A DNA stretch of 45,499 nt from Candidatus Humicultor tengchongensis (GTDB lineage Bacteria; Sysuimicrobiota; Sysuimicrobiia; Sysuimicrobiales; Humicultoraceae), in the NCBI GenBank assembly GCA_031459715.1, contig JAVKIA010000019.1:1-45499 (forward strand). The letters are read 5' to 3'. The position numbers and the translations under genes are program-made. Of this stretch, positions 20,551-35,564 are shown in pieces; positions within the stretch are counted from its first letter, which is position 1, and each line of letters opens with the position of its first letter. Below the pieces are notes generated by a model. The model was not told the DNA's origin. It saw only the letters and a program-made list of their open reading frames with translations, and made no database searches.

Positions 20551-22248
20551 TTACCTGCCCCCTGTGGTCACCGCTCCCTCAGAAGCCGAAGAGACCAGGC
20601 GGGCGTACTTCGCCAGCGCCGGGCCCGGGGCAGGGCGCACGGGCGGACGCCGCTCCCGCAGCCGCTGTGCCAGCACCTCCTCCGGGAGCTCCACCGCCAG
20701 GCGGCGGGCAGGCACGTCGATCGTGATCAGGTCGCCGTCCTGCACCGCGGCGATCGGACCGCCCACGGCGGCCTCCGGGGTGACGTGGCCCACCATCAGC
20801 CCGTGCGTGGCCCCGGAGAAGCGGCCGTCGGTCACCAGGGCCACCGCATCCCCCAGCCCCGCTCCCACCAGCGCGCCCGTCACCGCCAGCATCTCCCGCA
20901 TCCCGGGGCCCCCCACCGGGCCCTCGTAGCGGATCACCACCACATCCCCGGGCCGGATGGTCCCTGCGCCCACCGCGACGAAGGCTTCCTCCTCGCTGTC
21001 GAAGACGCGCGCCGGCCCGCGGTGGCTGGTACGCTCGTGCCCCACCAGCTTGACCACGCACCCCTGGGGCGCCAGGTTTCCCCGCAGGATGGCGAACCCT
21101 CCGCTGGCCCGGAGCGGTGCCGCCAGGGGGCGCACTACCTCCTGCCCCGGCGTCTCGGGAGCGTCGGAGACCTCTTCGGCCAGGGTACGCATGGTCACGG
21201 TGAGGGTCCGGGGGTGGAGCAGGCCCCCCTCCAGCAGCCGCCGCGCCAGCAGGCGCACGCCCCCGGCCCGGTGCAGGTCCGTGGCCACGAAGCGGCCGCC
21301 GGGCTTCAGGTCCGCCAGAACCGGGGTGCGCGCGCTGATGGTGTCGAAGTCTTGTAGTTCGAGCGGCACGTCCGCTTCCCGCGCCACGGCCAGAAGGTGC
21401 AGCACCGCGTTGGTGGAGCCGCCGCTTGCGGCCACCGAGGCTATGGCGTTCTCCAGGGCCGCCCGGGTGACTATCTGCCGCGGACGGACTCCGTTACGCA
21501 CCAGGGCCACGGCCAGGCGCCCCGCCGCCCGGGCCAGCTCGTCCCTGGCCGGATCCAGCGCGGGGACGGTGCAGCTTCCCATGGGAGAGATCCCCAGCAC
21601 CTCGAAGGCGATGGCCATAGTGTTGGCGGTGAACTGCCCGCCGCAGGCCCCCGCCCCGGGGCAGGCCTGCGCCTCCAGCTCGGCCAGGTCGGCGGCGCCG
21701 ATGGCACCCCGCTGGTAGGCGCCCACCGCCTCGAAGACGTCCTGGATGGTCACCGCCCTGCCGCGGAACTGGCCGGGGGCGATGGAGCCTCCGTAGAGCA
21801 TCAACCCCGGCAGGTCGAGCCGCGCCAGGGCCATCACTGCCGCGGGGATGGTCTTGTCGCATCCCGTGATCGCCACCAGTCCGTCCAGCAGGTGGCCGCG
21901 GGCCACCAGCTCAATAGAGTCGGCGATGACCTCGCGGCTGACCAGGGAGGCGCGCATCCCTGCTGTCCCCATAGAGACCCCGTCGGAGATGGCTATGGTG
22001 TTGAACTCCACCGGAGTCCCTCCGGCCTCGCGGATGCCCGCCTTCACCTGTGCGGCCAGGTGACGGTGGTGGTAGTTGCAGGGCATGACCTCGATCCAGG
22101 AGTGGGCCACCCCGATCAGCGGACGGCGGAAGTCCTCGTCCCGGTAGCCCACCGCCCGCAGCATGGCCCGGGCCGGAGCCCGCTCCGGCCCGTCCAGCAG
22201 CGTCCGGCTGTTAGTGCGCGGATCCACTACGCTCTCGTCCCCGCTCAC
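20551..22248 (-). CDS. ilvD: Dihydroxy-acid dehydratase
   Basis: It is the C-terminal ~565 aa of the 858-aa track ORF. Motifs: [45 protein letters not shown]. The GTG start overlaps the leuB TGA (GTGA) and is in frame with both ends of the track ORF. Confidence 0.9.
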
Positions 22249-23378
22249 TGCCCTCCACCTCCTTCCCGCACCATGGCGGCGATGCGCTCGCCCACCTGCA
22301 TGGTGGTCGCCTCCCCACCGAGGTCGGGGGTGCGCACCCCTGCGGCCAGTACGCGGGATGTCGCCTCCTCCACCAGAGCCGCCTCCTCCTCCAGGCCGCA
22401 GGAATAGCGCAGCAGCAGCGCCGCGCTCAGGATCGCCCCCACCGGGTTGGCCACCTGCCGTCCGGCGATGTCGGGGGCGGAGCCGTGCACCGGCTCGTAG
22501 AGCGCCGGCGGGCGCGCTCCCAGGCTGGCCGACGGCAGCAGGCCCACCGACCCCACCACTCCCGCGGCCTCGTCGCTCAGGATGTCGCCGAACATGTTCT
22601 CCGTGAGCAGCACGTCGAACTGCTGCGGGGCGCGCACCAGCTCCATGGCCGCGGTGTCTACCAGCATGTGCCGCAACGCCACGTCGGGAAAGGCGCGGGC
22701 TTCCTCCTGCACTACCGCCCGCCACAGCTGGGAGCTGGCCAGCACGTTGGCCTTGTCCACCGACGTCACCTGCCCCCGCCGCGTCCGCGCCTGCTGGAAG
22801 GCCACACGGGCCACGCGGGCAACTTCCTCGCGCCCGTAGCGCAGGGTGTCCACCGCCTGGTCCCCCGTCCGGCCGCGTGGCTCCCCAAAGTAGAGTCCCC
22901 CGGTGAGCTCGCGCACGATCACCAGGTCCATCCCGGCGGCGCGCTCGGGGCGCAGCGGCGAGACCTCCGCTGCTCCGGGAAAGACCCGCGCCGGACGGAG
23001 GTTGGCGAACACCCCCAGGGCCCGGCGCAGCGCCAGCAGGCCGCGCTCGGGACGCCGCTCGGAGGGCAGGTCGTCCCACTGCGGCCCACCCACAGCGCCC
23101 AGGAAGACGGCCTCCGCCGCCGCGCACGCCTGCAGGGTCTGCCGGGGCAGGGGCTCACCAGTGGCCTCCAGGGCGGCGCCGCCTATCAGCCCCTCGCTGA
23201 AGTGAAACCGCAGGCCGCGCCGCGCCTCCACCGCACGCAGGACGCGCACGGCCTCCGCGGTGACCTCGGGCCCGATCCCGTCCCCGGGCAGGAGCAGGAT
23301 CCGGTACCAGGCATTCCGGTTGCCGGATGCAGAGGGCCGAGCGCTGCCGGGGCGGCCTAGAAGATCTCCTGGATGCAC
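22245..23378 (-). CDS. leuB: 3-isopropylmalate dehydrogenase
   Basis: 377 aa. [35 protein letters not shown] and [11 protein letters not shown]. The annotated ATG overlaps leuD by 22 nt. The true start could be slightly downstream, but no ATG or GTG is available there. Confidence 0.85.
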
Positions 23379-24001
23379 TCCGCCAGCCAGCGGACCTCCT
23401 CCCCGCCCCCCGGCCGCACCGCACCGCCCGCCCCCAGGCTCTCCACAGCGCCGCCGCCCGGGCCGCCGCGCTGCAGCACCGCCCGCACGTAGCCCACCAG
23501 GCCCCCGCTGGCCAGCAGCCGCTGCATGAATTCGGGCACGGGCGTGGCGGGGTAGGTCTCGTCTCTGGTCAGGTTGACGATGCGCCCCCGCTGCAGGTCG
23601 CAGAGCAGCTCGTCCCCGTCCCGCACCCGGTCGCGGGCCTTGGGCGACTCCAGCAGGGGCAACCCGATGTTGAAGGCGTTGCGGTAGAAGATGCGGGCAA
23701 AGGAGCGGGCCACGATTGCGCCCACCCCCAGCGCCCGGATGGCTATGGGGGCGTGCTCGCGGCTACTGCCCTGGCCGAAGTTCTCGCCGGCCACCAGGAT
23801 GTCGCCGGGACGGATGCGCTCCCGTAGCGTGGGATCCAGGTCCTCGAAGACGTACCGCGCCAGCTCCCGGGGATCGCTGGTCACCAGGTAGCGGGCCGGT
23901 ATGAGCACGTCGGTGTCGATGTGGTCGCCCAGGGTGTGGGCCCGTCCGCGCACCTGCAGGGAGCCGCCGGCACCGGCGTCGTCTCTCCCGGCCCCGCTCA
24001 T
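23357..24001 (-). CDS. leuD: 3-isopropylmalate dehydratase small subunit
   Basis: It is the C-terminal 214 aa of the 562-aa track ORF: MSGAG...LGDHIDTDVLIPARYL...GENFGQGSSREHAP. The ATG overlaps the leuC TGA (ATGA). Confidence 0.9.
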   Translation of the reverse strand: MSGAGRDDAGAGGSLQVRGRAHTLGDHIDTDVLIPARYLVTSDPRELARYVFEDLDPTLRERIRPGDILVAGENFGQGSSREHAPIAIRALGVGAIVARSFARIFYRNAFNIGLPLLESPKARDRVRDGDELLCDLQRGRIVNLTRDETYPATPVPEFMQRLLASGGLVGYVRAVLQRGGPGGGAVESLGAGGAVRPGGGEEVRWLAECIQEIF

Positions 24002-25278
24002 ACCGGCACCGCCTCCCGCACAACTTCGTCGGGGTGGGCCAGACAACCCCGCACCGCGGAGGCCGCGGCCACCGCCGCGTTGGCCAGGTAGACCCGGCTG
24101 CCCCGGTGCCCCATCCGCCCGATGAAGTTGCGGCTGCTGGTGGAGACGCACACCTCGCCTTCCGCCAGCACCCCCATGTGCCCGCCGATGCAGGGCCCAC
24201 AGGTGGAAGTGCTGACTGCGGCGCCCGCTTCCAGGAAGACCTGGATCAGCCCTTCCTCCAGCGCCTGGCGGTAGATGCCGGGGGTGGCGGGGATGACCAG
24301 CAGCCGCGTCTGTGGGTGCACCCGCCGCCCGGCCAGGACGCGGGCGGCCAGCCGCAGGTCCTCCATCCGCCCGTTGGTGCAGGTGCCGATGAAGCACTGG
24401 TCGACGCGGATCCCGGCCGCCTCGCGCACGGGGACCACGTTGCCGGGCGAGGAGGGCGCGGCCACCAGCGGCTCCAGACGGGAGACGTCGTAGCGGCGCA
24501 CCTCCGCGTAGGTGGCGGCCGGGTCCCGGTGGTGCACGGTGAAAGGACGGCGGGCGCGGGGTCGGATCCAGGCCAGCACCGTCTCGTCGGCCTCCATGAT
24601 GCCGTTCTTCGCACCGGCCTCCACCGCCATGTTGGTGATGGAGAAGCGCTCGTCCATGGTCAACTGCCCCAGGGCCTCGCCGGCGAACTCCATGGCGGCG
24701 TAACGGGCGCCGTCCACCCCGATGTCGCCTATGACCCGCAGGATCAGGTCCTTGCCGGTGACCCAGGGCTGCAGCCGCCCGGCGAAGAGGTAGAGCACCG
24801 TCTCCGGGACGCGCAGCCACAGGCGGCCCAGGGCCATGGCCGCGGCCAGGTCCGAGGAGCCCACCCCGGTGGCGAAGGCACCCAGCGCCCCGTGATTGCA
24901 GGTGTGGGAGTCGGCCCCCAGAAAGACGTCGCCTGGGCCGACGAACCCCTCCTCGGCCAGAAGGACGTGGGCCACCCCGGTGCGCCCTATGTCGTAAAAG
25001 TGGGGCAAGCGGTGGCGGCGCACGAAGGCCCGCGTCACCGCGCACTGCTGGGCGGAGGCGATGTCCCTGGCCGGGACGTAGTGGTCGAAGACGAAGGCCA
25101 CCCGGTCCGGGTCAAAGACCCGCTCCGCGCCCATGCGCTCGAACTCCTGGATGGCCAGCGGGGCGGTGATGTCGTTGGCGAAGACGAAGTCCACGCGCGC
25201 CTCGATCAGGTCCCCCGGGCGCACGGTGGCCGCCCCCGCATGGGCGGCCAGGATCTGCTCGGTCAGGGTCAGCCCCAC
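23998..25278 (-). CDS. leuC: 3-isopropylmalate dehydratase large subunit
   Basis: 426 aa. Aconitase-family motifs: GADSHTCNHGALGAFATGVG, CFIGTCTNGR, TSTCGPCIG. Confidence 0.9.
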   Translation of the reverse strand: MGLTLTEQILAAHAGAATVRPGDLIEARVDFVFANDITAPLAIQEFERMGAERVFDPDRVAFVFDHYVPARDIASAQQCAVTRAFVRRHRLPHFYDIGRTGVAHVLLAEEGFVGPGDVFLGADSHTCNHGALGAFATGVGSSDLAAAMALGRLWLRVPETVLYLFAGRLQPWVTGKDLILRVIGDIGVDGARYAAMEFAGEALGQLTMDERFSITNMAVEAGAKNGIMEADETVLAWIRPRARRPFTVHHRDPAATYAEVRRYDVSRLEPLVAAPSSPGNVVPVREAAGIRVDQCFIGTCTNGRMEDLRLAARVLAGRRVHPQTRLLVIPATPGIYRQALEEGLIQVFLEAGAAVSTSTCGPCIGGHMGVLAEGEVCVSTSSRNFIGRMGHRGSRVYLANAAVAAASAVRGCLAHPDEVVREAVPV

Positions 25279-25287
25279 CGCCGGACC

Positions 25288-26463
25288 TCAGGAGCGCACG
25301 CCGCCAGCGGCGCTGTGCACCTCCCTGGCCAGCGCCACCAACTCCTCCACGGTCACCCGCTTGCGCCGGTCGGCCAGTGCCTTGAAGGCGGCGAAGGCCC
25401 GCTCCAGCGCCTCCTCCGGCAGGTGCACCCCCTGCTGGGCCAGGACGTGAGCGAAGGCGTGCCGGCCGGAGTGCTTGCCCATCACCAGCCTGGTGGCCGG
25501 CACCCCCACGTCCTCGGGCCGCATGATCTCGTAGGTCAGAGGGTTGACGATCACCCCGTGCTGGTGGATGCCGGCCTCGTGGGCGAAGGCATTGGCACCC
25601 ACGATGGCCTTGTTGGGCGGTACGGCGACCCCGGTGATCGCCTCCAGCGTGCGGCTGGCTCCGTAGATTCCCTGCGTCCGGACGCCGACCTCCACCCCGA
25701 AGACGTCGCGGCGCACCACCAGCGCCATGACCACCTCCTCCAGGGCGGCGTTGCCGGCGCGTTCCCCGATTCCGTTGACGGTGCACTCCACCTGCCGGGC
25801 GCCGGCCTGCACCGCCGCCAGGGAGTTGGCCACGGCCAGCCCCAGGTCGTCGTGGCAGTGGACGCTTACCGTCACCCCATCGATCCCGGGAACCTCCGCC
25901 CGCACCCGGCGCACCAGGGCGGCGAACTGGTCGGGCGTGGCATACCCCACGGTGTCGGGGATGTTGATGGTCGTGGCCCCTGCAGCCACGGCGGCGGCGA
26001 AGACCCGGATGAGGAAGTCCGGATCGGACCGGCTGGCGTCTTCCGCGGAGAACTCCACCTCGGGAGCATAGCGGCGGGCGCGGCGGACCGCCGCTGCCGC
26101 ATCGGCCACCACCTCGTGGGGGGTCTTGCGCAGCTTGCTGCGCATGTGCACCTCAGAGGTGGCGATGAAGGTGTGGATGCGTGGCCGCTTAGCCCCCCGC
26201 AGCGCCTCCGCCGCGGCATCGATGTCCTCGGGGGCGGCGCGGGCCAGGGCGGCGATCACCGGGCCGCGCACCGCCCGGGCCACGGCGGCGACGGCCGCGC
26301 CGTCGCCCGGGGAGCTGGCGGGGAAGCCGGCCTCGATGACGTCCACCTGCAGCTCCGCCAGCGCCCGGGCCATGGCCACCTTCTCCTCAAGGGTCATGGA
26401 GAAGCCGGGCGACTGCTCTCCATCGCGCAGCGTGGTATCGAAGATGGCGACGCGGTCGGCCAC
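25288..26463 (-). CDS. leuA: 2-isopropylmalate synthase, short form (catalytic TIM-barrel plus subdomains, no C-terminal LeuA-dimer regulatory domain)
   Basis: 391 aa. [35 protein letters not shown], and HxH (HEAGIHQHG). GTG start. The operon position argues for LeuA rather than NifV or CimA. Confidence 0.75.
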
Positions 26464-26468
26464 GGTGG

Positions 26469-27596
26469 CTACCTCCCCGCGGGGGCGCGCGCAGATGCCG
26501 CCGCACCCGGGGAAGGGGCGGCGGCAGGCTCGCCCGATGCTGAAGCCACAGCGGCGGCGGCCCGTTCGCCGGGACCCGGAGACGGTGCAGCGCCGGGGAC
26601 CTCTACCCGGCGCAGCCAGGGCATCATGGCCCGCAGGCGGCGGCCCACCTCCTCAATGGGGTGGCGTGCCTCCTCCGCCCGGCGGGCCTCCAGGACCGGG
26701 CGCCCGGCCTGGTTCTCCAGGATCCACTCCCGGGCGAAGGTGCCGTCCTGCACCTCGCGCAGCAGACGGCGCATCTCCTGCCGCGTGGCCTCCGTGATGA
26801 TCCGCCGCCCGCGGGTCAGGTCCCCGTACTCGGCGGTGTTACTCACCGAGTAGCGCATCCAGGCCAGCCCCCCCTCGTAGAGCAGGTCCACGATCAGCTT
26901 CAGTTCGTTGAGGCACTCGAAGTAGGCGATCTCCGGCTGGTAGCCCGCCTCCACCAGGGTGTCGAAGCCCGCCTTGATCAGCTCGGTCACCCCGCCGCAG
27001 AGGACAGCCTGTTCGCCGAAGAGGTCGCTCTCCACCTCCTCGCGGAAGGTGGTCTCGATGACACCGGCCCTGGTGCAGCCGATGCCGCGGGCGTAGGCCA
27101 GGGCCAGCGCCTGCGCGCTCCCGGTGGCGTCCTGGTGCACGGCCAGCAGCGCGGGGACGCTTCCCCCTTCCGCAAACATCCGCCGCAGGAGGTGACCGGG
27201 TGCCTTGGGGGCCACCATGAAAACGTCCACGTCGGGCGGGGGGACTACCTGGTGAAAGTGGACGGCAAACCCGTGGGAGAACCCCAGGGCCTGACCGCCG
27301 CGCAGGCGGGGAGCAATCTCCTCGCGGAACACCTGCCCCTGGCGCTCGTCGGGGATGAGGACCTGCACCAGGTCCGCCTCCGCCACTGCCTCGGACACCG
27401 TGCGCACGCGGAACCCGTCGGCCTCCGCCCGGGCCCAGGAGCGGCTGCCGCGGAAGAGGGCCACCGTCACCTGCACGCCGTTGTCGCGCAGGTTCTGCGC
27501 CTGGGCGTGCCCCTGGCTGCCGTACCCCACCACCGCCACCCGCCGCCCCTCCAGGGGTGCCAGGCTGGCGGCGTCGTCGTAGTAGATCCTGGCCAT
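26469..27596 (-). CDS. ilvC: Ketol-acid reductoisomerase (class I) with a ~45-aa Ala/Pro-rich C-terminal tail
   Basis: 375 aa. [21 protein letters not shown], and ...[11 protein letters not shown]... Confidence 0.9.
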
Positions 27597-27654
27597 AGGC
27601 CTCTCCTCCTTAAACCGGGTTAACGTGATCTGCGCCTCCCGGGCGGCCCGGCTC

Positions 27655-28185
27655 CTACGTGGTCTGCGACCCCCGGGCCAGGGCCACCCGCCCCGTGCGC
27701 ACCATCTCCCGGATGCCGTGCCTGCGCAGCAGCGCCTGCAGGGCGTCGATCTTGTCCGGCTTGCCGCTGACTTCCACCACCACAGTGTGTTCGCCCACGT
27801 CCACCACCCGGGCGCGGAAGATCTGGGCCACGTGCAGTACCTCTTGGCGCGTGCCCGGGGTGACGCTGACCTTGATCAGGGCCAGCTCCCGCTCCACCGT
27901 GTCGCAGCCGGTGAGGTCGTGGACGCGGCGCACCTCCAGGATCTTGTTCAGGTTCTTCACCACCTGCTCCGCCTGCTCGTCTCCCTCCAGGACCACCAGC
28001 ATGCGGGAGATCCGCCGGTCGTCGGTCACCCCTACGGAGAGGCTGTGGATGTTGTAGCCGCGGCGGCGGATCAGCCCGGCAATCTTGGCCAGCACGCCGG
28101 GGCTGTTCTCCACCAGCAGCGAAATGCTGCGGACCGTAGTCGGAGGCTGGCCGTTGGGCTGCCGCCGGATGCGGGCGCCATCCAT
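27655..28185 (-). CDS. ilvN: Acetolactate synthase small (regulatory) subunit
   Basis: It is the C-terminal 176 aa of the 387-aa track ORF. It has an ACT domain ([32 protein letters not shown]). The ATG overlaps the ilvB TGA (ATGA). Confidence 0.9.
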
Positions 28186-29978
28186 CACTCCAGAATCATC
28201 TCCTTCACCGACTGCCCGGAGGGGATCATCGGGAAGCAGTTCTCCTGGGGGTCCACCAGGACGTCCAGCACCACAGGCACATCCGACACCTGCAGCGCCC
28301 AGGCCACCGCGTCCTCCACCTCCTCGGGGCGGCGCACGGTGCGCCCCGCGGCGCCGAAGACCTGGGCCAGCCGGGCGAAGTCGGGGTTCTGCAGCATGAC
28401 GTGGGAGTAGCGCTGGCGGTAGAAGAGCTGCTGCCACTGCCGCACCATGCCCAGGGAGCCGTTGTTGATGATGACCACCTTCACCGGGAGGCGCCACTCC
28501 ACCGCCGTGATCAGGTCCTGCAGCGTCATCTGGAACCCACCGTCGCCCACCAGCGCCACCACCGTGCGCTGCGGGCAGGCCAGCTGCGCCCCTATGGCTG
28601 CAGGGAAGCCGAACCCCATGGCCCCCAGGCCGCCGGAGCTGATGAAGGTGCGGGGCTCGCGGCAGCGGTAGAACTGCGCCGCCCACATCTGGTGCTGGCC
28701 CACATCCGTGACCACGATGGCCCTTTCCTGGGTGAGGCGGGCTACGGTCTCGCAGACGAACTGGGGCTTGATCACCTGGTCGCCCTGGCGGTAGCGCAGC
28801 GGGTAGCGCTCTCGCCACTCCTGGATCTGGCGCAGCCAGGGCTCGATCTGCGGCGGAGCCGTGATGCGCTCCACCAGGGCCGCCAGCACCAGCTTCGCGT
28901 CGCCCACGATGGGGATGTGCGCCGGCTTGTTCTTACCGATCTCCGCCGGGTCGATGTCGATGTGGATGAAGCGGGCGCGGGGGGCGAAGTCCGCCAGGCG
29001 CCCGGTCACGCGGTCGTCGAAGCGCACCCCCACCGCCAGGATCAGGTCGGCCTCGTTAATGGCGTAGTTGGCATACGCGGTGCCGTGCATCCCCAGCATG
29101 CCCAGACAACGGGGATGGTGCTCGTCGATGGCACCTTTGCCCATCAGGGTCACGGTGACGGGGATCCCCGTGCGCTCCACCAGGCGGGTCAGCTCCGCGG
29201 AGGCCCCCGCGGAGATCACCCCGCCGCCGGCATAGATAATGGGCCGCTCTGCTCCCTGCAGGGCCTCGGCCGCGGCGGCGATCTGGGCGGCGTTGCCCTC
29301 GCGGTGAGGGCGGTAGCGAGCGGTCACGTCTTCCACGGGGCGGGGGACGACCCGGGCCTGGGCCACATCGCGCGGCACGTCCACCAGCACCGGCCCCGGC
29401 CGGCCCGCGGCGGCCACGTAGAAGGCTTCGGCGATGGCCCGGGGCAGGTCGGCGGCATCCCAGACCTGGTAGGCGTGCTTGGTCACCGGCATGGTGATGC
29501 CGATGACGTCGGCCTCCTGGAAGGCGTCCCTCCCGATGACCGCGGTGGGCACCTGGCCGGTGATGGCCACCACCGGCACCGAATCCATGTGGGCGTCGGT
29601 CAGGCCGGTGACCAGGTTGGTGGCTCCCGGCCCGGAGGTGGCCATGCACACCCCCACCCGCCCCGAGGCCCGGGCGTAACCCACTGCTGCGTGGGCGGCC
29701 ACCTGCTCATGGCGAACCAGGACGTGCCGCAGGTCGGCGGCGTCGTAGAGGGCATCATAGATGGGTAACGAGGCGCCGCCGGGTATGCCAAAGATCACCG
29801 CAGCACCGGCCTGACGCAGGGCCTCGACCAGGAGCTCGGCCCCGGACCGGGTGACCTCCCGCCCGGTTGGGGCCAGCTCGCCTCGGGAGCGGCCCAATCG
29901 CGAACGGATTGCTGCCCGCGAGCCAGCCCCGTCTCCTGAGGGTGTGCGCCTGCCTGTGCGGGATGCGGTTACCGTCAT
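28185..29978 (-). CDS. ilvB: Acetolactate synthase large (catalytic) subunit
   Basis: The track ORF is 634 aa. An internal ATG (MTVTAS...) has a GGAGGG SD 6 nt upstream, giving 597 aa. TPP/FAD motifs: GIPGGASLPIYDAL, GDGGFQM. Confidence 0.9.
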   Translation of the reverse strand: MTVTASRTGRRTPSGDGAGSRAAIRSRLGRSRGELAPTGREVTRSGAELLVEALRQAGAAVIFGIPGGASLPIYDALYDAADLRHVLVRHEQVAAHAAVGYARASGRVGVCMATSGPGATNLVTGLTDAHMDSVPVVAITGQVPTAVIGRDAFQEADVIGITMPVTKHAYQVWDAADLPRAIAEAFYVAAAGRPGPVLVDVPRDVAQARVVPRPVEDVTARYRPHREGNAAQIAAAAEALQGAERPIIYAGGGVISAGASAELTRLVERTGIPVTVTLMGKGAIDEHHPRCLGMLGMHGTAYANYAINEADLILAVGVRFDDRVTGRLADFAPRARFIHIDIDPAEIGKNKPAHIPIVGDAKLVLAALVERITAPPQIEPWLRQIQEWRERYPLRYRQGDQVIKPQFVCETVARLTQERAIVVTDVGQHQMWAAQFYRCREPRTFISSGGLGAMGFGFPAAIGAQLACPQRTVVALVGDGGFQMTLQDLITAVEWRLPVKVVIINNGSLGMVRQWQQLFYRQRYSHVMLQNPDFARLAQVFGAAGRTVRRPEEVEDAVAWALQVSDVPVVLDVLVDPQENCFPMIPSGQSVKEMILE

Positions 29979-30370
29979 GCTCTGCCCTCCGGTGAAAACA
30001 AAATGAGCCACCCGTAAGGACGGGCAGCTCCCGTGGTACCACCTTACTTCCGGGGCCCAGAGGGGCGGGGCGGAGATCGCACCGCACATCGCGTGCGGGC
30101 CCGGCCCTGCCCGGAGACCCGGAACTCTTTGCCCGCTATCGGGGGCGAGGACGGCGGAACCTAGTCCCGGGGGACGTCGGTCCCGCGGCTCGGGGACGAG
30201 TTCGTGCGGTCACCGCGGCGGCCAGCTCCCACCTGCCCTGGCTCTCTCCACGCCGCGCGCCGCCTACTGCTTCCCCTCATCGCCGATAAAGCCATAAAGC
30301 CGGCCGGGCCGTCAAGCACGAAAGCCTGAGGCGACAGATTTCACGAGGAACCTCCCCCTCAGGCTTCTGT
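29979..30370 (-). promoter_or_regulatory. Candidate T-box riboswitch leader of the ilv-leu operon (tRNA-Leu, CUC specifier)
   Basis: In the minus-strand RNA, GUAAGG-UGGUACC-ACGGG-AGCUG-CCCGU-CCUUAC forms helix A1, a 7-nt bulge carrying UGGU that could pair the tRNA NCCA end, and helix A2. It resembles the T-box consensus AGGGUGGNACCGCG. A stem-I candidate (AAGCCUGAGG...CCUCAGGCUU) contains GUGA and then CUC-A, the same Leu specifier as the B. subtilis ilv-leu leader. Confidence 0.6.
29995..30030 (-). terminator. Intrinsic terminator of the T-box leader (competes with the antiterminator)
   Basis: The RNA AGCUGCCCGU-CCUU-ACGGGUGGCU forms an ~8-bp stem with an internal mismatch, followed by CAUUUUGUUUU. 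It lies ~25 nt upstream of the ilvB SD. Confidence 0.5.
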
Positions 30371-30394
30371 CCTGACGGCGTAGCGGCGACCGGT

Positions 30395-30446
30395 GCACCG
30401 CCTGCGCCGCTTGGTCCAGACCGGTCCCGGATGGGGACCGCGGAAC
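30395..30446. repeat. Copy A of a conserved bipartite motif, CCTGCGCCGCTTG-(hairpin)-GCGGAACCCTAGGCGC
   Basis: Blocks of 13 and 16 nt are identical to the copy at 35229..35290. The intervening hairpins differ but both pair (A: GGUCCC/GGGACC; B: GCCUUCC/GGAAGC or CCAGG/CCUGG). Confidence 0.5.
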
Positions 30447-30524
30447 CCTAGGCGCACTTCCTCGATCGACCAGCCAAACTCCTATGGACTTGCCGCAAAC
30501 GCTAGCAGAGCGCGGAGCTGTTTG

Positions 30525-33500
30525 TCAAGCCCTGAATCCCGAAAGTTCGGAATCTGGCGAACCGGCCGCCTCCGCAGCATCCTGTCCGAGGAGGCCGCGG
30601 GGGAGGACCTTTCGGAGGCGACCGGCTGAAAAAGGCCAGGCCTGCAGCAGCTCTGCCGCCCGCCGGCTCCCGGTGTGCGCCAGATGCTCGGCGAGGAGGT
30701 CGCGCAGCTCGTGCAGATCTTTCGCTTCGACCTGCACCACCGACACCGTCTCCTGGTTGCACCGGCCGGCGAACAGGCCGTCCTCGTCCAGGACGTAGGC
30801 CCGGCCCCCGGTCATCCCCGCACCGAAGTTGTAGCCGGCGCGGCCCAGCACCACCACTACCCCTCCGGTCATGTACTCGCACCCGTGGTCGCCCACCCCT
30901 TCCACTACGGCCACCGCGCCGCTGTTGCGCACGGCGAAGCGCTCGCCGGCGCGCCCCGCGGCGAAGAACCGGCCGCCGGTGGCGCCGTAGAGGACCGTGT
31001 TGCCCGCGATCACGTTCTCGTGGGAGGCGCCGGTGAAACCACGCGGCGGGCGGATGGCGATCGTTCCCCCGCTCATCCCCTTCCCCGCATAGTCGTTGAC
31101 CTCGCCCTCCAGCTCCAGGACCATCCCCGGGACGCAGAACGCGCCGAAGCTCTGACCCGCGCTCCCGGTAAACCGGAGCACGACGCGTCCCTCCCCCAGT
31201 CCTCCCTCCCCGTACCGCCTGGCGATGGCTCCGGCCAGGCGTCCGCCCACCGTCCGGTCCATGTTGCTGATGGAGTAGGTCAGGTGCACTGGGATGCCGC
31301 GCTCCAGGGCGGGCCAGGCGTCCATCCAGACGCGGTCGTCCAGGGTGGGGCCCTCGGGCCGCTTGTTGCGCGCCTGCATGCAGCGCCGCGCCGCCTCCGG
31401 CACCCCGGCGGACCCGGCCAGGAGCGCGGAAAGGCCGATACGGCGTCCCAGGACGGACTCGTCCACCGGGGATAGCAGCTCGCTGCGCCCGATGACCTCC
31501 TCCAGGGTGCGGGCGCCCAGCGCCGCCAGGTGACGCCGCACCTCCTCGGCCACCGCAAGCAGGTATGCCTCCACCCGCTCGGGCCGTCCGCTGAACCGGC
31601 CTCGCAGGTCCTCCCGCTGCGTGGCGATGCCGGTGGGGCAGGTGTTGAGGTGGCAGGCGCGGGCCATCACGCAGCCCAGGGCGACCAGCGCCGCGGTGCC
31701 GAAGCCGAACTCGTCTGCGCCCAGCAGGGCAGCCACGACCACGTCCCGCCCCGTTTTCAGCCCCCCGTCCACGCGCAGGCGGACCCGCCCGCGCAGCCCG
31801 CTGGCCACCAGCACCTGCTGGGTCTCCGCCAACCCCAGCTCCCAGGGCAGGCCCACGTGCTTGATGGACTCCAGGGGCGAGGCCCCCGTGCCGCCGTCGT
31901 GTCCGCTGATCTGGATGGTGTCGGCAAAGGCCTTGGCCACCCCCGCGGCGATGGTGCCCACACCGGCTTCCGCCACCAGCTTCACAGCCACGCGGGCCAG
32001 AGGATGGACTCGCTTGAGGTCGTAGATGAGCTGGGCCAGGTCCTCGATGCTGTAGATGTCGTGGTGGGGCGGCGGGGAGATCAGCGTGATCCCCGGCTGC
32101 GCGCGGCGGATGGCGGCGATCTCGGCGCTGACCTTGTGGCCGGGGAGCTGGCCTCCCTCGCCCGGCTTGCTCCCCTGCGCCATCTTGATCTCCAGCTCGT
32201 CGGCCGATACCAGGTAGGCCGCAGTCACCCCGAATCGTGCCGAGGCCACCTGCTTGATCCGGCTGTTGGCGTTGGTGCCGTCGGGCCGGGGGAGGTAGCG
32301 GGAGGGATCCTCGCCCCCCTCGCCGCTGTTGGAGCGGGCCCCCAGGCGGTTGGCGGCGATGGCCAGGGCCTCATGTGCCTCCCGGGAGAGCGCCCCGTGG
32401 GACATCGCTGAGAGGACGAAGCGGCGCACGATGGCGTCGGCAGGCTCCACCTCCTCCAGAGGGACGGGCTCCCGCCGGACAAAGGCCAGCAGGTCGCGCA
32501 GGGCGGTGGGGGGGCGGGAGGCGACCAGGTCGGCGAAGGCGGTGTAGGCCTGGCCGCTGCCCGACTGGGCGGCCTGGTGCAGCCGCTTCACTACATAAGG
32601 GTTGAAGGCGTGGTATTCACCGTCGCGGCGGAAGCGGACCAGCCCCGGGTCCGCCAGCTCTCCATCTCCGGCGAAGGCGCGTGCGTGGCGGGCGGCCGCC
32701 TGGGCGGCCAATTCGTCCAGGGAGACGCCGCCCAGGTGGGCGGGCGTGCCGGGGAAGTAGCGCTCCACCACCTGAGGGTCCAGCCCCACGACCTCGAAGA
32801 CCTGCCCGCCCTGGTACCCGGCGAGGGTGCTGATTCCCATCTTGCTGGCCACCTTGAGCAACCCCTGCTCCAGAGCGCTGAGGTACTGCCGGACCGAGGG
32901 TCGGCGGCCGTTGGCGGAGGGCAGCGCGGCCACGGTCTCCAGGGCCAGGTAGGGGCAGACCGCCTCAACTCCGTAGCCCAGCAGGCAGGCTACCTGGTGG
33001 ACGGTACGCGCTTCACCGCTCTCGACCAGCAGACCCACCCGCATGCGCAGCCCCACCCGGATGAGGTGATGGTGAACGGCGCTGGCGGCCAGGAGCATGG
33101 GGATGGGGATGCGTTTTGGGTCGGCGGCGCGGTCGCTGAGGATGAGCAGACCTGCCCCTTCTGAAACTGCGGATTCCGCCTCGCCGGCCAGACGGACAAG
33201 CGCAGCCTCCAGCGAGTCGCGGTCCGCAGGCCACGTGGCGTCCAGAACCACCGCCGGCCAGGGAGCGTGGGCGCGCACCCAGCCAAGCTGGTCGGGGGTG
33301 AGCACGGGCGAGGGGAAGGCCAGCAGCGCGGCGTGTTCGGGGCCATCCTCCAGCCAGTTGCGCCGCGGGCCCACCCGGACGGCAAGCGACATCACCAGCC
33401 GCTCCCGCAGGGGGTCGATCGGCGGATTGGTCACCTGGGCGAACCGCTGGCGGAAGTAATCGTAGAGGAGCCGGGGCCGTTGAGACAGGGCAGCGGGCGG

Positions 33501-35108
33501 GGTGTCGTCACCCATGGAGAAGACGACCTCCTTGCCCTCGGTGGCCATCGGCAGGAGGAGGTAGGTCACCTCTTCAGCCGTATACCCGAACACCTGCTGG
33601 CGGCGGCGCAGCCTGGCCCCGGCTGCGCTGTCTTGGGGTGGCGCTCCTGCATCAGGAGCGAGCGCCGCCTGCTCCGGCCCCTTCGCCGGCACCGGGGGTT
33701 CCCAGTTCCCGCCCGGGACGCGGATGATCCGGCGCGTCCACTCCCGGTAGGACCTGGCCGCGGCCACCTGTGCCTTTATCTCCGCGTCCGCCAGCATCTG
33801 GCCGGTGACAGTGTCCACCGCCAGGACCTGGCCCGGCCCCAACCGCCCCTTGCGCACCACCTGATCTGCGGGAAACGGTAGGACCCCAGCCTCTGACGCC
33901 AGCACTACCAGCCCCTCTGCCGTCACGGCGTAGCGGGCGGGTCGCAGGCCGTTACGGTCGAGGGCCGCGGCCACGATGCGCCCGTCGGAGCAGGCCAGCG
34001 CCGCGGGTCCGTCCCACGGCTCGGTCAGGCAGGCGTGGTACTCGTAGAAGGCGCGCACCGCATCGGGCAGGTCCGGGAGCTCCTCCCACGCCTGCGGGAC
34101 CAGCATCAGGAGGGCATGGAGCAGAGAGCGGCCCGAGGCCACCAGCAGCTCCAGGACGCTGTCCAGGTGGGCGCTGTCGCTTCCGCCCTCCTGCAGCAGC
34201 GGGACCAGGTCCCTCCACCGGTCGGCCCAGAGGGACTCCCGCAGCATCGCTTCCCGCGCGCGGGTCCAGAGGAGGTTGCCCTGCAGGGTGTTGATCTCCC
34301 CGTTGTGCGCCAGGTAGCGAAAGGGCTGGGCCAGCCACCAGCTGGGGGAGGTGTTGGTGCTGTACCGCTGGTGGAAGACCGCCAGCCGGGTGACGTAGGC
34401 GGGGTCGGTCAGGTCGCCATAGAAGCGCCCGAGTTGGGGGGAGACGAAGAGGCCTTTGTAGACCACGGTCCGGTGCGAGAAAGAAGCGATGTAGGCTCCA
34501 AGACCGGATTCCCGCAGGCGTCGCTCTGCCGTCCTCCGGGCGAGGTAGAGGCTGCGGGTGAAGGCAGGGTCATCATCCCCCGCCCGCCGCACGACCACGA
34601 GCTGTCGGATCACCGGCTGCGTCACGCGGGCGAAGGCTCCAAGTGCGTCCGGGTCTACGGGAACGGGCCGCCAGCCCAGGACGCGCAACCCCTGAGAACA
34701 CGCGGCCTGCTCAATCAGCGCCGCAGCCTCGTCTGCGGCAGCAGATGGCAGGAACACCATGGCCAGGGCCAGGTCCTCATCGCCCACGTCCCCCAGCGGG
34801 AGGTCGCGGCGCAGCAGGTCATAGGGAAGCTGGGTGAGCACCCCCGCTCCGTCCCCCGACTTCCCGTCGGCGGAGACGGCCCCACGGTGGCTCATCCGGG
34901 AGACGGCGGAGAGCGCCGCGGCCAGCACAGCGTGGCTGGGGAAGCGGTGGGCAACGAACCCTACGCCGCAGGCGTCGTGTTCCGCGATCGGGCTGACCAC
35001 TGGACCTCCCTTAGACTTCCTCAGGGCAAGCCGTCCGTCACAGGCGACTTTCAGGACAGCGCCCGCTCCAGGATCCCCTGCTATGCACGAAGCCCGAGGG
35101 CGAGGCAC
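30525..35108 (-). CDS. gltB: Glutamate synthase large subunit (GltB/GltS type)
   Basis: 1527 aa. Motifs: HDACGVGF, FSHRTVVYKG, GEGG (the FMN/4Fe-4S region) and a C-terminal GxxGxxG beta-helix. The ORF start is GTG. An alternative GTG at about 35000 has an AAGGGAGGT SD and leaves 10 aa before the catalytic Cys. Confidence 0.9.
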   Translation of the reverse strand: MPRPRASCIAGDPGAGAVLKVACDGRLALRKSKGGPVVSPIAEHDACGVGFVAHRFPSHAVLAAALSAVSRMSHRGAVSADGKSGDGAGVLTQLPYDLLRRDLPLGDVGDEDLALAMVFLPSAAADEAAALIEQAACSQGLRVLGWRPVPVDPDALGAFARVTQPVIRQLVVVRRAGDDDPAFTRSLYLARRTAERRLRESGLGAYIASFSHRTVVYKGLFVSPQLGRFYGDLTDPAYVTRLAVFHQRYSTNTSPSWWLAQPFRYLAHNGEINTLQGNLLWTRAREAMLRESLWADRWRDLVPLLQEGGSDSAHLDSVLELLVASGRSLLHALLMLVPQAWEELPDLPDAVRAFYEYHACLTEPWDGPAALACSDGRIVAAALDRNGLRPARYAVTAEGLVVLASEAGVLPFPADQVVRKGRLGPGQVLAVDTVTGQMLADAEIKAQVAAARSYREWTRRIIRVPGGNWEPPVPAKGPEQAALAPDAGAPPQDSAAGARLRRRQQVFGYTAEEVTYLLLPMATEGKEVVFSMGDDTPPAALSQRPRLLYDYFRQRFAQVTNPPIDPLRERLVMSLAVRVGPRRNWLEDGPEHAALLAFPSPVLTPDQLGWVRAHAPWPAVVLDATWPADRDSLEAALVRLAGEAESAVSEGAGLLILSDRAADPKRIPIPMLLAASAVHHHLIRVGLRMRVGLLVESGEARTVHQVACLLGYGVEAVCPYLALETVAALPSANGRRPSVRQYLSALEQGLLKVASKMGISTLAGYQGGQVFEVVGLDPQVVERYFPGTPAHLGGVSLDELAAQAAARHARAFAGDGELADPGLVRFRRDGEYHAFNPYVVKRLHQAAQSGSGQAYTAFADLVASRPPTALRDLLAFVRREPVPLEEVEPADAIVRRFVLSAMSHGALSREAHEALAIAANRLGARSNSGEGGEDPSRYLPRPDGTNANSRIKQVASARFGVTAAYLVSADELEIKMAQGSKPGEGGQLPGHKVSAEIAAIRRAQPGITLISPPPHHDIYSIEDLAQLIYDLKRVHPLARVAVKLVAEAGVGTIAAGVAKAFADTIQISGHDGGTGASPLESIKHVGLPWELGLAETQQVLVASGLRGRVRLRVDGGLKTGRDVVVAALLGADEFGFGTAALVALGCVMARACHLNTCPTGIATQREDLRGRFSGRPERVEAYLLAVAEEVRRHLAALGARTLEEVIGRSELLSPVDESVLGRRIGLSALLAGSAGVPEAARRCMQARNKRPEGPTLDDRVWMDAWPALERGIPVHLTYSISNMDRTVGGRLAGAIARRYGEGGLGEGRVVLRFTGSAGQSFGAFCVPGMVLELEGEVNDYAGKGMSGGTIAIRPPRGFTGASHENVIAGNTVLYGATGGRFFAAGRAGERFAVRNSGAVAVVEGVGDHGCEYMTGGVVVVLGRAGYNFGAGMTGGRAYVLDEDGLFAGRCNQETVSVVQVEAKDLHELRDLLAEHLAHTGSRRAAELLQAWPFSAGRLRKVLPRGLLGQDAAEAAGSPDSELSGFRA

Positions 35109-35228
35109 CCACCGGACTGTGCACTCCGGCGAGTGCGAACCTCTCCCTCGGGCTTCTCTCCCGATGGTAGACCGGCCGACCCCACCCGATCCGCTCAGGA
35201 ACCAGACCGGGGAACTGTCGGTATTTCG

Positions 35229-35290
35229 CTGCCGGCCTGCGCCGCTTGAACCAGGCCTTCCCCTGGTGGAGGAAGCGGAACCCTAGGCGC
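35229..35290. repeat. Copy B of the same conserved bipartite motif
   Basis: CCTGCGCCGCTTGaaCCAG...GCGGAACCCTAGGCGC, lying ~120-180 nt upstream of the gltB start on the minus strand. Confidence 0.5.
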
Positions 35291-35564
35291 CTCTCGCGCC
35301 AAGCGCGAGGAACTTGGCGCCATGGTTGCAGCCGGTCGGGATCCTGTCAAGCGGTTCGTTCGCGTAACTCGAACATTCTGGCAAGAACCCGGGGAGCGCA
35401 TGTGGCTCCCCTGACGGCTTCCGCTCCCTGCAGTGCCTGAGATCCGAGCCTGGGCCTGCGAGCGATCCCCGGGCCGGGCCGTGGACTCCCACGCTCGGTG
35501 AGGCCCTGAAAGCTCTCACTTCCGGCCGATCCTCATTCCTGGTAAGGTCAAAAGATGATCGCCC

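Follow-up and report, generated by a model that had tools for sequence, protein, structure and literature searches.

A putative ppGpp-type aptamer and a leucine T-box in series before an ilv-leu operon in a GC-rich Armatimonadota genome

Results

Organization of the ilvB locus

The window analysed here is the whole 45,499-nt stretch of contig JAVKIA010000019.1 from Candidatus Humicultor tengchongensis. Its GC content is 70.3%, in line with the 70% given in an original prediction made from the letters of this DNA, and NCBI protein names identify the host as an Armatimonadota metagenome-assembled genome (MAG), that is, a non-Firmicute. The subject of this study is the ilvB leader of about 480 nt, which lies in a 546-nt untranslated stretch between the stop codon of gltB and the ATG of ilvB (29978). 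gltB encodes the large subunit of glutamate synthase (1527 aa, 35108-30525). All features given by window coordinates lie on the minus strand. The leader had been described as a lone T-box leader; that description missed a ykkC-fold aptamer at 30464-30344, and the leader is a tandem of the two elements.

The regulated operon (20551-29990) begins with a Shine-Dalgarno (SD) sequence, GGAGGG (29990-29985), and consists of ilvB (29978-28185), ilvN (28185-27655), ilvC (27596-26469), a short leuA (26463-25288), leuC (25278-23998), leuD (24001-23357), leuB (approximately 23300-22245) and ilvD (approximately 22227-20551). Beyond ilvD lies a convergent gene. NCBIfam equivalog matches for all eight genes, together with gene calls in identical MAG contigs, bear out the gene order originally proposed. 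The count of nine genes in the title of that proposal was one too many, and the start/stop overlaps (ATGA/GTGA) said to run throughout were found at only three of the seven junctions (ilvB/ilvN, leuC/leuD and possibly leuB/ilvD); the remaining four are gaps of about 5-55 nt. The ilvB open reading frame encodes 597 aa, of which the first 44 or so (29846-29978) match no acetolactate synthase profile, and the product is annotated as 570 aa in one MAG. The ATG at 29978 has a good SD sequence at a spacing of 6 nt, but the true start is not certain.

The leucine T-box

A scan of the whole window at the Rfam gathering thresholds gave no match for either RNA. In E-value mode over 29900-30560, the T-box family RF00230 aligned at 30289-30013 over its entire model (1-219 of 219) with 45.4 bits and E = 9e-9. 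The 12-mer T-box core was not significant by itself, since 0.87 matches are expected at one mismatch or fewer; the full covariance-model alignment was significant.

The cmscan alignment to RF00230 placed stem I at 30188-30283. It contains a kink-turn (K-turn), GCGAUGAG (GAUGA), with stem I base pairs (30283-30276), the specifier-loop AGUA (30268-30265), the AG bulge AGAGA (30247-30243), the distal loop GGCAGGUGGGA, which contains GGUG (30237-30227), and GAA (30203-30201) followed by the specifier CUC (30200-30198) and a G. The leucine specifier CUC of the original prediction was therefore present, but it stands as GAA-CUC-G, followed by G and not A, and in a different hairpin from the one proposed. 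The original prediction had also made an RF00230 match above threshold and the stem I motifs its own test. No match above the gathering score was obtained, whereas the specifier loop, AG bulge, distal loop and K-turn all aligned.

Downstream of stem I, the same alignment identified stem II (30186-30154) and a IIA/B region with an F-box-like segment, CGUCCUCGCCCCCGAUA (30153-30137). The S-turn motifs are approximate (GA/CUA versus GAA/GUA), and the F-box reads CCGAUA against the consensus CCGUUA. Stem III (30048-30124) is an irregular, GC-rich hairpin of about 77 nt with the base helix UUCCGGG/CCCGGAA. The T-box sequence AAGGUGGUACCACGGG was confirmed on the minus strand at 30045-30030, within an antiterminator (30014-30047) that consists of helix A1 (GUAAGG/CCUUAC), a 7-nt bulge (UGGUACC) and helix A2 (ACGGG/CCCGU). 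This structure, proposed in the same form before, was recovered by cmscan and is exactly the minimum free energy (MFE) fold of 30056-30013, at -12.9 kcal/mol; the bulge carries the expected UGGN. A73, the usual base at that position in bacterial tRNA-Leu, would pair with the UGGU of the bulge.

The competing terminator had likewise been predicted correctly. By folding, it is an 11-bp stem, GAGCUGCCCGU/ACGGGUGGCUC, with the loop CCUU (30030-30005), followed by the U-tract AUUUUGUUUU (30004-29995). Its predicted stability, -19.2 kcal/mol (z = -4.15), exceeds that of the antiterminator. The two share strands and are mutually exclusive, and in a 62-nt fold the terminator won. The MFE fold of the whole leader was uninformative (z = -1.2); only folds of single domains were informative.

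A T-box acting on translation by sequestering the SD sequence, like the actinobacterial ileS T-boxes, would suit the high GC content of this genome, and it is in high-GC Actinobacteria that T-boxes of this kind are typically found. Here, however, the alternative helix is a canonical GC-rich hairpin of 11 bp followed by AUUUUGUUUU, in a 70% GC genome, and the SD sequence GGAGGG lies 5 nt past the U-tract, outside the hairpin. Translational control is very unlikely, and we rejected it on this terminator anatomy.

The upstream ykkC-fold aptamer and its terminator

Upstream of the T-box, RF00442 (Guanidine-I/ykkC) aligned over its full length at 30462-30353 with 58.8 bits and E = 7e-10 in the same E-value mode. 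We also built a ppGpp (guanosine tetraphosphate) profile from 29 distinct published putative ppGpp aptamers (PMC10687018, supplementary file 9). It aligned with the ilvB aptamer over positions 2-114 of 118, both tails included, at 45.9 bits. Against the whole window, this site had E = 8.5e-14 and the sole other match was in the gltB leader.

These alignments, the predicted fold and conservation define an aptamer at 30344-30464 with the complete ykkC fold (P1, P1a, P1b, P2 and P3, with the motif CUAGGGUUCCG) and features of subtype 2a, the ppGpp type. P0 is a 7-bp helix, CGAGGAA/UUCCUCG, between 30464-30458 and 30350-30344. P1 (UGCGCC/GGCGCA) is followed by CUAGGGUUCCG (30451-30441), the P1b hairpin (30440-30422), an AAGC junction (30412-30409), P2 (30402-30382), an ACGC junction (30381-30378), P3 (30375-30359) and the 3' junction GGGGGAGG (30358-30351). 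When the aptamer was folded in isolation (30466-30344), the MFE structure was a four-way junction of P0, P1, P2 and P3 at -64 kcal/mol (z = -3.1).

The 3' part of the aptamer overlaps a terminator-like hairpin, AAGCCUGAGG...GUGA...CCUCAGGCUU (30366-30322), which folds at -29.4 kcal/mol (z = -3.4) and is followed by the U-rich tract UUUCGUGCUU (30323-30314); the whole platform spans 30314-30366. The 5' strand of the hairpin consists of the 3' strand of P3 and the 3' junction of the aptamer. When the next 27 nt were added to the isolated aptamer, the hairpin supplanted P0 and P3 in the MFE fold. Because of this switch, 30366-30322 is taken as the terminator of the first riboswitch. Related leaders carry UUUCGUUUUU (L087) and UUUUGUGUUU (L090) at the same place.

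The 10-bp stem I with GUGA and CUC-A of the original prediction is this same hairpin, about 40 nt upstream of the start of the T-box model. A lone leucine T-box controlling the operon, with the upstream hairpin as part of stem I, would accord with the T-box being genuine and with the strings GUGA and CUCA in the hairpin. The RF00230 model, however, starts at 30289, and its complete stem I at 30283-30188 has the K-turn, the AG bulge, the distal loop and GAA-CUC-G. A full-length ykkC aptamer uses the 5' strand of the hairpin as well, and in relatives the hairpin persists as the terminator of that aptamer, also where singlet aptamers have no T-box (L085 and L086). A lone T-box is thus highly improbable.

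Conservation in related leaders

Related leaders were sought by an IlvB-based scan of species-representative genomes and by a DNA-pattern scan of metagenomes. The nearest relative, Armatimonadota SAR307 (L001), whose IlvB is 65% identical, has the same order of ykkC aptamer and T-box. Metagenomes supplied further tandem leaders, L087, L090 (identical in leader sequence to L092) and L089, as well as five singlet aptamers upstream of gltB-like genes. The covariation alignment comprised five leaders, those of the window, L001, L087, L089 and L090, which fall into two tight groups.

In these five leaders, 99% of the aptamer pairs were kept, with two compensatory pairs, compared with 30-48% when the partners were slid. 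P0 showed one compensatory and one wobble change in relatives. For the T-box, 96% of the pairs held, with five compensatory pairs, against 35-51% when slid, and its covariation score was reached in none of 500 shuffles. Compensatory changes occurred in helices 4 and 5 of stem I. Stem II and the antiterminator were 100% paired, the latter with a swap of G-C to C-G in A1. The window, L087 and L090 retain the base helix of stem III, with one compensatory pair; in L001 and L089, stem III is short. This conservation with compensatory changes supports both structures, short of statistical proof.

Ten T-boxes that precede ilvB in other genomes scored 47-108 bits on RF00230; two of them passed its gathering score of 93 and eight fell below it. 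Across L001, L007, L013, L015, L019, L066, L067 and L068, the Rfam gathering thresholds miss most elements of this kind. The ppGpp-type aptamers of L001 and L066 both score below 63, the gathering score of RF00442, which was their only matching family; no separate ppGpp family was matched in Rfam 15. GAA-CUC-G is identical in the ilv-leu leader of Bacillus spizizenii (L058), and among the other Armatimonadota leaders, L001 and L067 carry CUC with the GAA context intact. In L013 and L015, likewise Armatimonadota leaders, CUC stands at the aligned position and the GAA region is gapped in the alignment. In other phyla, the aligned specifier position holds GUC (Val) in the ilvB-linked T-box of a Poribacteria MAG (L017, 2667-2946) and AUC (Ile) in that of Pelotomaculum (L068, 1-254). 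The same type of operon therefore appears to be gated by different branched-chain amino acid (BCAA) tRNAs across lineages. In a Solirubrobacterales genome (L031, 5488-7567), GATGGTTCCGCG occurs four times downstream of ilvB at a spacing of exactly 693 nt, which suggests a long tandem repeat.

Ligand class of the upstream aptamer

The subtypes of the ykkC fold are told apart by a few diagnostic nucleotides, which we took from PMC6031431 and PMC9881157. The ilvB aptamer has A5/G6, the AG just 5' of P1, as do all 29 published ppGpp aptamers. The position of A46 in guanidine-I riboswitches (C49 in T. mathranii numbering) is a C, in AAG-C-G at 30412-30408; in the published ppGpp set it is C in 26 and U in 3. 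The column of G96, the diagnostic base of phosphoribosyl pyrophosphate (PRPP) riboswitches, holds A (CCUG-A-G), and the published ppGpp aptamers have A in 16, U in 12 and C in 1. The register of this column was set by an ungapped match to 3' tails of the Dac-1-2 type. The linker between P3 and P0, GAGG, fits the NAGG motif that is enriched in ppGpp-preferring aptamers. The gene context also fits, because the ilvB operon here and the second copy before gltB fall within the BCAA, glutamate synthase and natA-type genes among the gene classes listed for ppGpp riboswitches in PMC6003355. The upstream element is accordingly classed as a subtype 2a-type aptamer with (p)ppGpp as its predicted ligand.

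The one Rfam family that matched, at 58.8 bits, is the guanidine-I family RF00442, and this would be the argument for a guanidine-I riboswitch (ykkC subtype 1). The score is nevertheless below the gathering score of 63, and a clear ppGpp-type aptamer in L066, which resembles published Atribacteria entries, also reaches only 51.9 bits on this family. In addition, the diagnostic A46 (PMC6031431) is replaced by C, the conserved 5' and 3' extensions pair as P0, a helix that guanidine-I riboswitches do not have (PMC6031431), and the genes downstream are for BCAA biosynthesis, not guanidine carboxylase or efflux. A guanidine-I riboswitch is scarcely credible here and was rejected for the C at the A46 position, the BCAA context and the score. 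An assignment to the PRPP class, in which G96 is present in more than 97% of members (PMC6031431), was rejected because of the A in that column and because BCAA rather than purine-biosynthesis genes follow.

The promoter-like element and a second aptamer upstream of gltB

A promoter-like element precedes the leader at 30499-30528. It consists of TTGACA (30528-30523, overlapping the gltB stop codon at 30527-30525), an 18-nt spacer and TGC-TAGCGT (30507-30499) of the extended -10 type. A simple strict-consensus sigma-70 scan called no promoter, and the element emerged only by alignment. The window, L087 (5255-5400) and L090 (6925-7070) share the invariant block GATTCAGGGCTTGACAAAC...TCTG(C/G)TAGCGT, and its flanks diverge. 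TTGACA-N18-TGnTAGCGT probably supplies the promoter of the ilv-leu leader. The interval from gltB to the leader contains no terminator, which leaves read-through from gltB possible as well.

A divergent ykkC-like aptamer (35297-35143), followed by the hairpin GAAGCCCGAGGG...CCCUCGGGCUUC, lies upstream of gltB (35088-35297 in all). It scored 42.8 bits on RF00442 (E = 3e-6), and the ppGpp profile matched its 5' half with E = 5.9e-6. It shows the marks of subtype 2 (CAAG-C-G, A in the G96 column, a GAGG linker and P0) and has its own terminator-like hairpin. P2 contains an insertion of about 50 nt, and the P2-P3 junction is one nt shorter than canonical, without an intact ACAC; in one alignment, U takes the place of the ligand-pairing C in the window copy. 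The variant is kept in L087 (560-835); the gltB-linked aptamers of L085 and L086 are canonical. The gltB element is related to the ilv leader but not part of it. On a quite improbable reading, this lineage carries subtype-2 derivatives with altered pockets, with ACGC before ilvB and a shortened junction before gltB, and one or both respond to something other than ppGpp, perhaps an alarmone that contains adenine such as (p)ppApp, and so form a new ykkC subtype.

Discussion

Our analysis indicates, with a probability of roughly 0.78, that the ilvB leader consists of two transcription attenuators in series, a ykkC aptamer of subtype 2a (ppGpp type) and a leucine T-box, which together would form an AND gate with two inputs. 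Both folds are present with their diagnostic nucleotides, each is coupled to a mutually exclusive helix, and both are conserved with covariation in relatives. From these features we infer ligand binding, termination in vivo and the logic of the gate. By default, the strands of P0 and P3 would be captured by the hairpin 30366-30322, and transcription would stop at its U-rich tract. Binding of (p)ppGpp would stabilise P0 and P3 and let RNA polymerase pass the first terminator. In the T-box (30283-29995), the CUC specifier in stem I would then recognise the tRNA-Leu(GAG) anticodon, and the 3' ACCA end of the uncharged tRNA would pair with UGGU in the antiterminator bulge, so that the weaker antiterminator would be stabilised against the stronger terminator. 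A full-length ilvBNC-leuACDB-ilvD mRNA would need both signals. Because the upstream ppGpp-type sensor has a terminator of its own, the predicted logic is 'alarmone AND tRNA-Leu', not 'tRNA-Leu only'.

Several observations weigh against this reading. Both elements fall short of their Rfam gathering scores, the aptamer with 58.8 bits against 63 and the T-box with 45.4 bits against 93. For the T-box class the score of 93 is uninformative here, since eight of the ten T-boxes upstream of ilvB elsewhere are also below it. The homologous T-box of L001 scores 86 bits and differs mainly by a short stem III, and the lower score in the window goes with a stem III of about 77 nt, far longer than that of the model, and with GC-rich insertions. 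The U-tract of the first terminator, UUUCGUGCUU, is poor, and the covariation comes from only five sequences, which form two tight groups. The window and seven related contigs contain no tRNA genes, and hence no tRNA-Leu gene that would show the anticodon and the discriminator base. The AND logic of ppGpp/T-box tandems was proposed, not measured, in the literature (PMC6003355, PMC9481103). In the pocket of the aptamer, the P2 junction reads ACGC, with G at 30379, in place of ACAC, which is invariant across the published set of 29 putative ppGpp aptamers and also present in every one of the nine related aptamers recovered. The first C of ACAC, which pairs with the guanine of ppGpp, is kept, and the second A has become G. 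In the ppGpp aptamer structure from S. acidophilus (PDB 6DMC), this second A forms a hydrogen bond with a conserved G that contacts the 3' phosphates (PMC9881157). ACGC may therefore reduce or alter the affinity for ppGpp, and because of this departure the element is filed as a subtype 2a-type aptamer with a putative ligand. The leaders of the three other MAG contigs with the same genes are identical to that of the window and hence offered no variation to use. G30379 also occurs in L081 and L082, MAG contigs spanning the region with identical leaders, and is therefore not a private assembly error.

The ACGC junction bears on the view that the aptamer belongs to subtype 2 without responding to ppGpp, being of the PRPP type (2b), of another subtype, or decaying or altered through the change from ACAC, with the T-box as the sole working sensor or the first sensor reading a different ligand. 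[quoted passage not shown] Against it, the PRPP class needs the G96 that is A here, the rest of the pocket is canonical, and P0, P3 and the terminator are intact. The close relatives L087 and L090 have ACAC and differ from the window by few substitutions, so the aptamer was under selection until recently. A subtype 2 aptamer that does not respond to ppGpp is unlikely, and we keep the ppGpp-type aptamer in series with the T-box as the preferred reading.

LeuA (25288-26463, 391 aa) aligns with positions 4-384 of a 2-isopropylmalate synthase profile that has 516 positions and is therefore without the C-terminal regulatory (leucine feedback) domain. The truncated LeuA may have shifted leucine control onto the RNA leader. 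Should the truncation abolish feedback inhibition by leucine, control in response to leucine would lie mainly with the RNA sensors.

An all-RNA gate for 'alarmone AND uncharged tRNA-Leu', found mainly in Firmicutes, would thus operate, or at least be conserved, in a high-GC member of the Armatimonadota. The locus also marks a blind spot of annotation, because with both elements below the Rfam gathering scores automated pipelines would leave a leader of 550 nt blank. The current understanding of either RNA class is unchanged.

The Bacillus ilv-leu leader (B. spizizenii, L058) has in common with the window GAA-CUC-G, the T-box core GGUGGUACC, the logic of terminator and antiterminator and ilvB as the first gene, but it has no ykkC aptamer. 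The Bacillus operon is ilvB-ilvH-ilvC-leuA-leuB-leuC-leuD without ilvD, is controlled by CodY, TnrA and CcpA at the promoter and encodes a full-length LeuA. The operon in the window, in contrast, runs leuC-leuD-leuB, has ilvD in addition and encodes a LeuA without its regulatory domain. The proposals that ilvD extends the Bacillus gene set and that a leucine (CUC) T-box controls an ilv-leu operon in a 70% GC non-Firmicute are thus supported. Guanidine-I riboswitches (RF00442) share the ykkC scaffold (P1, P1a, P1b, P2, P3 and CUAGGGUUCCG), whereas the element described here has C instead of A46, a P0 and another gene context. PRPP riboswitches (ykkC subtype 2b) share the scaffold, P0 and the pyrimidine at C49, and they differ by G96, which is A here, and by their purine genes in place of BCAA genes.

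A 2018 study described tandems of a ppGpp riboswitch and a leucine T-box upstream of BCAA genes and proposed an AND gate for them (Sherlock, Sudarsan & Breaker, PMC6003355). About 40% of BCAA-associated ppGpp riboswitches adjoin a leucine T-box (PMC6003355), and Table 2 of a later review (Sherlock et al. 2022, PMC9481103) lists 15 cases with the ppGpp riboswitch first and 16 with the T-box first. The arrangement in the window, with aptamer, terminator, leucine T-box and terminator in the same order, separate expression platforms and BCAA genes downstream, is already explained by this published class. The published tandems are predominantly from Firmicutes, whereas this one is in a 70% GC Armatimonadota MAG, and no paper that pairs either RNA class with Armatimonadota was found in the literature searched. 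The window's tandem further differs in having ACGC instead of ACAC, an expanded T-box stem III and two elements below the Rfam gathering scores. What it adds to the class is modest: the phylum, the GC-rich expansions that bring the two elements below the Rfam thresholds, and the ACGC substitution.

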